A stretch of DNA of 1,659 bases from Escherichia coli. GTDB taxonomy: Bacteria > Pseudomonadota > Gammaproteobacteria > Enterobacterales > Enterobacteriaceae. Positions 1,341-1,659 of the stretch are shown piece by piece; the stretch's first letter is position 1, and each line of letters starts with the position of its first letter. A program made the position numbers and the translations under genes. The DNA is taken from NCBI RefSeq assembly GCF_003334355.1, contig NZ_QOWP01000083.1, one strand, 5' to 3'. The notes under the pieces are model-generated. The model searched no databases and was not told the origin of the DNA. It was given only the letters and a program-made list of their open reading frames with translations.

Positions 1341-1412
1341 ATGCGTAAAGTTTGTGCAGCCATTTTGTCCACAGCCATCTGTCTGGCCGTATCCGGTGCG
1401 CCTGCATGGGCG
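1341..1412 (+). other. Predicted Sec signal peptide of Lom (24 aa), with likely signal peptidase I cleavage after A-W-A
   Basis: [24 protein letters not shown] has a positively charged n-region (R2, K3), a hydrophobic core ([12 protein letters not shown]) and an AxA-type motif (AWA) before SEQQ. This is expected for an exported outer-membrane protein. Confidence 0.7.
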
Positions 1413-1659
1413 TCTGAGCAGCAGGCCACACTGAGCGCAGGGTATCTTCATGCCCGTACGAACGCTCCCGGCAGCGATAATCTGAACGGGATTAACGTGA
1501 AATACCGTTATGAGTTTACGGACACGCTGGGGCTGATTACGTCATTCAGTTATGCCAACGCTGAAGATGAGCAAAAAACGCATTACAGCGATACCCGCTG
1601 GCATGAAGATTCCGTGCGTAACCGCTGGTTCAGCGTGATGGCGGGGCCGTCTGTGCGCG
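1341..1659 (+). CDS. lom: Lom-like outer-membrane beta-barrel protein (Ail/Lom/OmpX/PagC family), N-terminal 106 aa, 3'-truncated by the window edge
   Basis: ATG at 1341 with a good RBS; the frame is open to the window end. My translation: [106 protein letters not shown]. From memory this is very close to lambda Lom (e.g. [73 protein letters not shown]). Placement directly downstream of J matches lambda. It is absent from the ORF track only because no stop codon falls inside the window. Confidence 0.92.

Follow-up and report, generated by a model that had tools for sequence, protein, structure and literature searches.

It is at least nearly certain that the sequence from position 1341 to the end of the window, the whole stretch of 1,659 nucleotides of Escherichia coli DNA analysed here, represents the 5′-terminal 53% of a lom gene of the lambda type. 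Taken as a whole, the results are best explained by a gene for an outer-membrane β-barrel protein that would be transcribed with the late tail operon and whose product would mask a phage receptor, a combined reading to which we assign a probability of roughly 55%. Receptor masking on its own, as the main selected function of the window-type Lom, is put at slightly under even odds on the analysis presented below. The gene itself is already known: it is annotated in RefSeq, it is ordinary, and the copy in the window is not unusual.

The ATG at 1341 starts a frame that stays open through the end of the window (1659), giving 106 codons with no stop or frameshift. The 106-residue product matched positions 1–106 of the 199 positions of the Pfam model PF06316 (Ail_Lom; E 1.3e-66) as well as PHROG 108, ‘Lom outer membrane protein’ (E 1.1e-53). 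The initial annotation had assigned 1341–1659 to lom, of the Ail/PagC family, and was right in both its coordinates and its description. As read from the translation, the N-terminus consists of MRK, a hydrophobic core and AWA|S, and the −3/−1 Ala rule places the predicted signal peptidase I (SPase I) cut after Ala24; a lipobox is absent from the translated signal peptide. The remainder of the window part includes two variable extracellular regions, L1 (approximately residues 36–51) and L2 (approximately residues 70–97). A 19-nt inverted repeat was also observed within the coding sequence (1436–1454 and 1600–1618; 89% complementary, 145 nt between the arms), which is probably due to chance.

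Upstream of lom, the window encodes 423 residues of the tail-tip/host-specificity protein J, ending in a TGA stop. This portion covered positions 736–1163 of the 1163 positions of the NCBIfam model lambda_TipJ (E 1e-216), and a phmmer search of the PDB with the same residues matched the lambda J structures and ‘A8 gpJ’. The last ∼140 codons form the receptor-binding domain (RBD). In the closely matching locus of E. coli 23CRST009 (NZ_AP045766, here L001), the J gene occupies 3794–7273 and is mosaic, with the GC content dropping from ∼0.60–0.65 to ∼0.48–0.52 near L001 5900–6050, that is, at the window start. A near-identical direct repeat of 16 nt was observed at 1073–1088 (GCTGAAATTTATAACC) and 1269–1284 (GCTGAATTTTATAACC), the second copy covering the J stop, and it may represent chance or a recombination scar. 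The repeat search of the window gave nothing beyond short two-copy matches. The features are listed in Table 1.

Table 1. Positions of the annotated features in the window.
Feature	Position	Strand	Basis or description
3′ end of J (424 codons including the stop at 1271-1273)	2..1273	+	lambda_TipJ match
Intrinsic terminator between J and lom	1292..1319	+	Stem GGGCGCC(A)/(T)GGCGCC, 4-nt loop, then TTTTTTATT
Shine-Dalgarno sequence GAGAGG	1330..1335	+	5 nt before the lom ATG, read from sequence
lom codons 1-24, Sec signal peptide	1341..1412	+	Translation; predicted SPase I cut after A-W-A
lom codons 25-106 (β1-β4, running off the window end)	1413..1659	+	Pfam Ail_Lom and AF2 strands of the full-length homologue

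The rest of the gene was followed in the 23CRST009 locus. The window was 99.9% identical to this locus, with two mismatches (105 and 1005), both in J, and positions 1274–1659, comprising the spacer and the lom part, were identical at every base. The lom gene of 23CRST009 is an intact ORF of 199 codons, annotated in RefSeq as WP_050867625.1, ‘Ail/Lom family outer membrane beta-barrel protein’. This full-length homologue ends in ...GFIVGVGYKF, with a terminal aromatic residue that lies beyond the window. It aligned over residues 1–199 of 199 with both PF06316 (E 3e-125) and phrog_108 (E 5.5e-110).

Because the window covers lom only to codon 106, the copy in its source could be disrupted or truncated past 1659, in which case no functional barrel would be made. 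Truncated copies do exist, both in the PPompW prophages of EHEC, which retain ∼57 homologous codons, and among the many partial clusters found in the protein searches, and the nearest-identical prophage, that of 23CRST009, is itself defective, with IS insertions in its tape-measure and tail-fibre genes. We nevertheless regard such a decaying copy as very improbable. The window lom continues far beyond 1511, where the PPompW copy breaks off, its 106 uninterrupted codons are identical to those of the intact homologue, and the 99.9% locus carries the full 199 codons. The best 20 E. coli matches (98.6–99.9% identity) all carried a gene annotated as Ail/Lom protein. Furthermore, lom was located in 157 loci, nearly all of them from IMG/VR and retrieved by window-type and lambda-type Lom queries, and 152 of these had a complete gene of 199, 206 or 207 codons. 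The spacer between J and lom measured 66–69 nt in 145 of the 157 loci. More broadly, a match to the J–lom window was found in 4872 of 5426 complete E. coli genomes, at a median of two places per genome, and the Lom clusters formed at 90% identity range in size from thousands to tens of thousands of sequences.

The fold of the protein was then considered using an AF2 model of the full-length homologue; the window itself encodes strands 1–4. With an alignment of 64 sequences from a 50%-representative search, the model reached a pLDDT of 92.7 (37.5 for a single sequence). It contained eight strands (residues 29–40, 47–58, 63–81, 86–106, 111–135, 141–166, 172–181 and 188–198), preceded by a low-confidence helix at residues 2–18 in the signal peptide region. 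The top solved matches in Foldseek were Yersinia Ail (3qra/3qrc, E 1e-14) and OmpX (1qj9), with a target TM of 0.85, the PDB set searched comprising releases up to 2026-04-08 without entry 9wso. In a PDB sequence search, the homologue matched lambda Lom (9wso) at 7e-50 and OmpX/Ail at ∼7e-19. The 8-stranded barrel put forward in the initial annotation was thus borne out by the model of the homologue, and the full-length homologue aligned end to end with its family, one of the two points on which the annotation had staked its assignment. Strands 3–6 are 19–26 residues each and, judging from this length, should project well above the membrane, like their shorter counterparts in OmpX and Ail.

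For the full-length protein, the best NCBIfam match was the Rck equivalog model NF011777 (E 8e-33), at 113.6 bits against a cut-off of 258, and the OmpX model NF006917 gave 97.8 bits against a cut-off of 176. By these scores, the Lom of the window is a relative of Rck and OmpX and not an equivalog of either. Across 100 distinct Lom proteins, per-column entropy peaked in the signal peptide and in three extracellular regions, L1, L2 and L3 (residues 36–51, 70–97 and 121–157), while the barrel base and L4 were near-invariant. The variability of L1–L3 fits any surface-recognition role. A mosaic arrangement was also seen in P0082, P0094 and P0101, which are window-type proteins with a lambda-like L1 including its 8-residue insertion (…GVPSLSGTG…). 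This pattern suggests that single extracellular loops may be exchanged between Lom proteins.

In the 67-nt spacer between J and lom, the terminator scan and folding identified a hairpin at 1292–1311 with 8 bp, 6 of them GC, and a minimum free energy of −19 kcal/mol for the RNA fold. Among 31 distinct J–lom spacers of the IMG/VR loci, 30 retained a perfect hairpin and a T-run, and their stems varied in a compensatory manner (GCGCC/GGCGC, GCACC/GGTGC and GCGTC/GACGC); the terminator is evidently under selection. Lambda carries a terminator in the same place with a different stem sequence. The ribosome-binding motif (A/G)AGAGGT was likewise present in every listed spacer variant. These observations uphold the statement of the initial annotation that lom lies behind a terminator with its own RBS. 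An Rfam scan of the window gave no match at E ≤ 1, and thus no known RNA element in the spacer.

Just 23 nt separate the terminator T-run from the lom ATG. Standard scans of the window and of the region around lom in L001 found no σ70 promoter on the + strand. A relaxed scan gave 8-of-12 matches at best, none of them usable, and a consensus scan of this kind may miss a weak or non-σ70 promoter. From the relaxed-scan site closest to lom, transcripts would begin at the terminator hairpin itself. In the lambda spacer (L002:3920–3948, L002 being the lambda locus), a weak promoter-like sequence, TCGTCC-17 nt-TATAAA, was observed, from which the 5′ UTR would be ∼10 nt and contain the Shine-Dalgarno sequence. 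This candidate, which overlaps the J–lom terminator, was rejected for the window, as the window-type spacer (TTATTGCAG) does not preserve its −10 element.

The gene order in the 23CRST009 locus and in lambda is J, lom, side tail fibre (stf) and tfa. The gene does not, as had been supposed, follow the tail genes; it sits between J and stf/tfa. A second terminator lies beyond the window, just past the lom stop (L001 7967–7988), and consists of a 9-bp hairpin with 7 GC pairs and a T-run. This hairpin is stronger than the one between J and lom, and its lambda equivalent, at L002 4613–4634, has a different stem. In HK97, stf follows J directly with no lom at the junction, and by this comparison of gene order lom is accessory DNA at the J–stf junction.

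Morons, in the sense of Juhala and Hendrix as summarised in PMC3594210, are extra DNA missing from the corresponding junction of related phages; they have a terminator of their own, a promoter of their own through which the repressed prophage can express them, a base composition unlike that of the genes around them, and expression in the lysogen. The GC content of lom was 0.55–0.56, compared with 0.47–0.52 for the 3′ third of J, 0.58–0.65 for the 5′ part of J and 0.53–0.60 for the 5′ part of stf. The value for lom thus falls inside the range of the neighbouring tail genes and does not mark it out by base composition. The description of a typical moron layout was therefore partly sustained: lom is extra DNA, as shown by HK97, and has its own terminator, but its GC content is not distinct and the σ70 scans found no promoter.

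Several rearrangements were observed around this junction. In the PPompW prophages of EHEC (LC567822.1, phage PPompW_132418, L162 3840–4166), lom is cut after ∼57 homologous codons; the truncated gene is annotated as a hypothetical protein of 108 aa, and its homology to the window stops at 1511. The T3SS effector genes espO and nleG follow the truncated lom in place of the tail-fibre genes, and the PPompW J–lom junction borders an effector-exchange locus. In the defective 23CRST009 prophage, an IS1203-family element adjoins the truncated tape-measure gene (L001:1–1416) and an IS3 element interrupts the tail-fibre region (L001:11030–12493).

Late transcription in lambda starts from pR′ and is Q-antiterminated, passing through terminators. 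By analogy with lambda, lom would be transcribed mainly with the late tail operon, by a Q-antiterminated polymerase that would ignore both terminators, and its expression in the lysogen would be low at most. Following from its family, the protein would be exported by Sec, cleaved by signal peptidase after Ala24 and inserted into the outer membrane in a BAM-dependent manner. In infected or lysogenic cells, it would then reside in the outer membrane and bind or shield the receptor recognised by the adjoining J RBD, as lambda Lom appears to do with LamB, and thereby block the adsorption of phages of its own kind. The effect of such masking would be either that sibling virions are not wasted on doomed cells and debris, or that superinfection is excluded. 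Lom may also, as a second function or as a by-product, promote adhesion to animal cells.

Points in favour of receptor masking are the data on lambda, the position of lom beside the RBD-coding end of J, the concentration of variability in L1–L3 and the association of RBD and Lom types considered below. Plasmid-expressed lambda Lom gave strong defence against lambda-vir and none against T7 (PMC12366544). The PDB entry 9wso contains lambda Lom (two chains) and the same maltoporin (LamB) sequence as the J–LamB complex 8xcj, and the entry would represent a specific Lom–LamB assembly, judging solely from the presence of both proteins in it; a literature search for a paper describing 9wso found none. 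The defence specific to lambda-vir, together with the co-occurrence of Lom and LamB in 9wso, suggests shielding of the phage’s own receptor as the best current mechanism for lambda Lom. Lambda lysogens with natural Lom levels had no protection from lambda-vir (PMC12366544). The PADLOC defence models gave no match to Lom or to the downstream tail-fibre protein. HK97 uses LamB as its receptor, and the lack of lom at its J–stf junction counts against masking.

A different account would make Lom a lysogenic-conversion adhesin or serum-resistance factor, that is, an independent moron expressed from the repressed prophage whose loops bind host-cell or complement components. The protein shares its Pfam family and fold with Ail and OmpX, its best NCBIfam model is that of Rck, ‘resistance to complement killing’, and human and animal E. 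coli very commonly carry the gene; the variable surface loops would also fit pressure from immune or host ligands. A 1997 study credited lambda Lom with promoting the adhesion of cells to buccal epithelium (Vica Pacheco, cited by PMC3594210 and PMC12366544). The direct evidence is this single study, of a protein 43% identical to the window type, and the scores of the window-type protein fall below the curated Rck and OmpX cut-offs. For lambda lom, the reports on expression in lysogens are inconsistent (PMC2147009). The gene is described as expressed in lysogens (PMC12366544), and a passage of the same report has lambda Lom climbing sharply late in infection and also constitutive from the prophage. 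By microarray, on the other hand, lambda lom was undetected in lysogens, and little is known of its promoter (PMC2147009).

The spacer also weighs against autonomous expression from a repressed prophage, with no promoter of its own found for lom and a terminator that leaves 23 nt before the ATG. In the PPompW prophages of EHEC, the truncation of lom and the presence of T3SS effectors instead argue that the gene is dispensable in a pathogen lineage. We consider the adhesin account rather unlikely as the main function, and it is not mutually exclusive with receptor masking. The virulence and lysogenic-conversion label of the initial annotation retains the Ail/OmpX family resemblance and the 1997 lambda study in its favour; the missed Rck and OmpX cut-offs speak against it, and the 2025 data and 9wso suggest receptor blocking instead. 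The virulence and moron framing is probably not the main story of lom.

Under receptor masking, the RBD adjoining lom is of particular interest. Over the distal 122 aa of the window J, identity was 41% with lambda J and 58.5% with the A8 chimera, which binds OmpC. The window RBD is accordingly nearer to the OmpC-binding ‘A8 gpJ’ (9wca/9wcb) than to lambda J. OmpC was rejected as an assignment for the receptor of the window RBD, 58.5% identity over 122 aa being too remote. Directly before the RBD, a segment of 140 aa occurs as 3–4 types in related loci, and these combine freely with different RBD types.

The co-variation of Lom type with RBD type was analysed in samples that had been selected for similarity of Lom and lack phylogenetic independence. 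Across the first 120 unique combinations, the AMI between RBD and Lom was 0.72 (0.72–0.74 over the first two samples); both flanking comparisons, that of the RBD with the 140 aa of J before it and that of Lom with the N-terminus of the downstream gene, gave 0.27. This early association persisted with the distal tail-fibre end as an extra control. A third sample, centred on the commonest Lom cluster (P0034-type loci), brought the total to 182 combinations. With 80% typing, the RBD–Lom AMI in this set was 0.50 (at most 0.06 over 500 permutations); with 90% typing, it was 0.48, against 0.46 for the RBD and the adjacent J segment. The linkage of RBD and Lom is thus real but could be purely physical, because at 0.48 it is no tighter than the linkage of the RBD to adjacent J. 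A functional coupling is not claimed here, given that the AMI fell from 0.72–0.74 to 0.50 and was matched by intragenic linkage at 90% typing.

Individual types displayed an asymmetric pairing. The RBD type of the window (type 5) was paired with the window-type Lom in 122 of 122 cases, and the window-type Lom (type 1) was paired with seven RBD types, the six others being 22–79% identical to that of the window. At the tip of L2, the window motif NAxDE occurred with RBD type 5 in 100 of 105 unique combinations, and the alternative motif GDKNR occurred with six RBD types. It is conceivable that Lom proteins are diversifying, receptor-specific masks whose L1–L3 hairpins are matched to the porin recognised by the adjoining J RBD, with the window type masking a receptor other than LamB. 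This receptor would perhaps be OmpC, because the window RBD is closest to the OmpC-binding A8 gpJ. We hold this more specific proposal to be speculative and improbable as it stands; if it were true, lom would be a marker of receptor specificity readable from sequence.

For annotation, the identification of lom is of little consequence, the gene being named in RefSeq and matched in most complete E. coli genomes as given above. It is useful as a marker of the lambda-type prophage tail module. Caution is warranted over the customary label of ‘virulence-associated moron’, which rests on thin evidence, and for lambda Lom a receptor-blocking role that benefits the phage appears at least as well supported as virulence. 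If receptor blocking holds for other Lom types, the pair of J RBD and lom could help to predict phage receptors and superinfection immunity from sequence.

Comparison with known systems places the window-type Lom closest to that of lambda (NP_040601, PDB 9wso chain C; gene at L002:3966–4586). Both genes lie between J and stf in the order terminator, RBS, gene and terminator, and both products belong to the same Pfam and PHROG families, align end to end and are identical in the C-terminal third (AYEGSGSGDWRTDGFIVGVGYKF). The two proteins differ in that they are 43% identical over the full length, with 199 aa in the window type and 206 aa in lambda. More specifically, the window type is without lambda’s 8-residue insertion in L1, and the tops of strands 3–6 (L2 and L3) diverge. 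The adjoining J RBD is 41% identical to that of lambda, so the receptor and masking target may not be LamB.

With Ail, OmpX, Rck and PagC, the window-type Lom shares the 8-stranded barrel, ∼30% identity, a signal peptide and a terminal aromatic residue. Its hairpins are longer, giving ∼175 mature residues compared with 148–157, and it is encoded in a phage tail operon, whereas theirs are chromosomal or virulence-plasmid genes. Like the lambdoid morons HK97 gp15 and lambda bor, lom is accessory, flanked by terminators and encodes an envelope protein unneeded for virion assembly; unlike them, it is without a detected promoter of its own and has a GC content like that of its neighbours.

The remaining comparison is with blockers of the T5 Llp type. 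Llp is a lipoprotein that blocks FhuA. In common with this type, Lom is a small envelope protein encoded beside the gene of a receptor-binding protein, and lambda Lom blocks its own phage type, and not T7, and shares a PDB entry with its receptor. The two differ in that Lom is an integral β-barrel and Llp a lipoprotein, and in that the pairing of Lom with the RBD is not exclusive.
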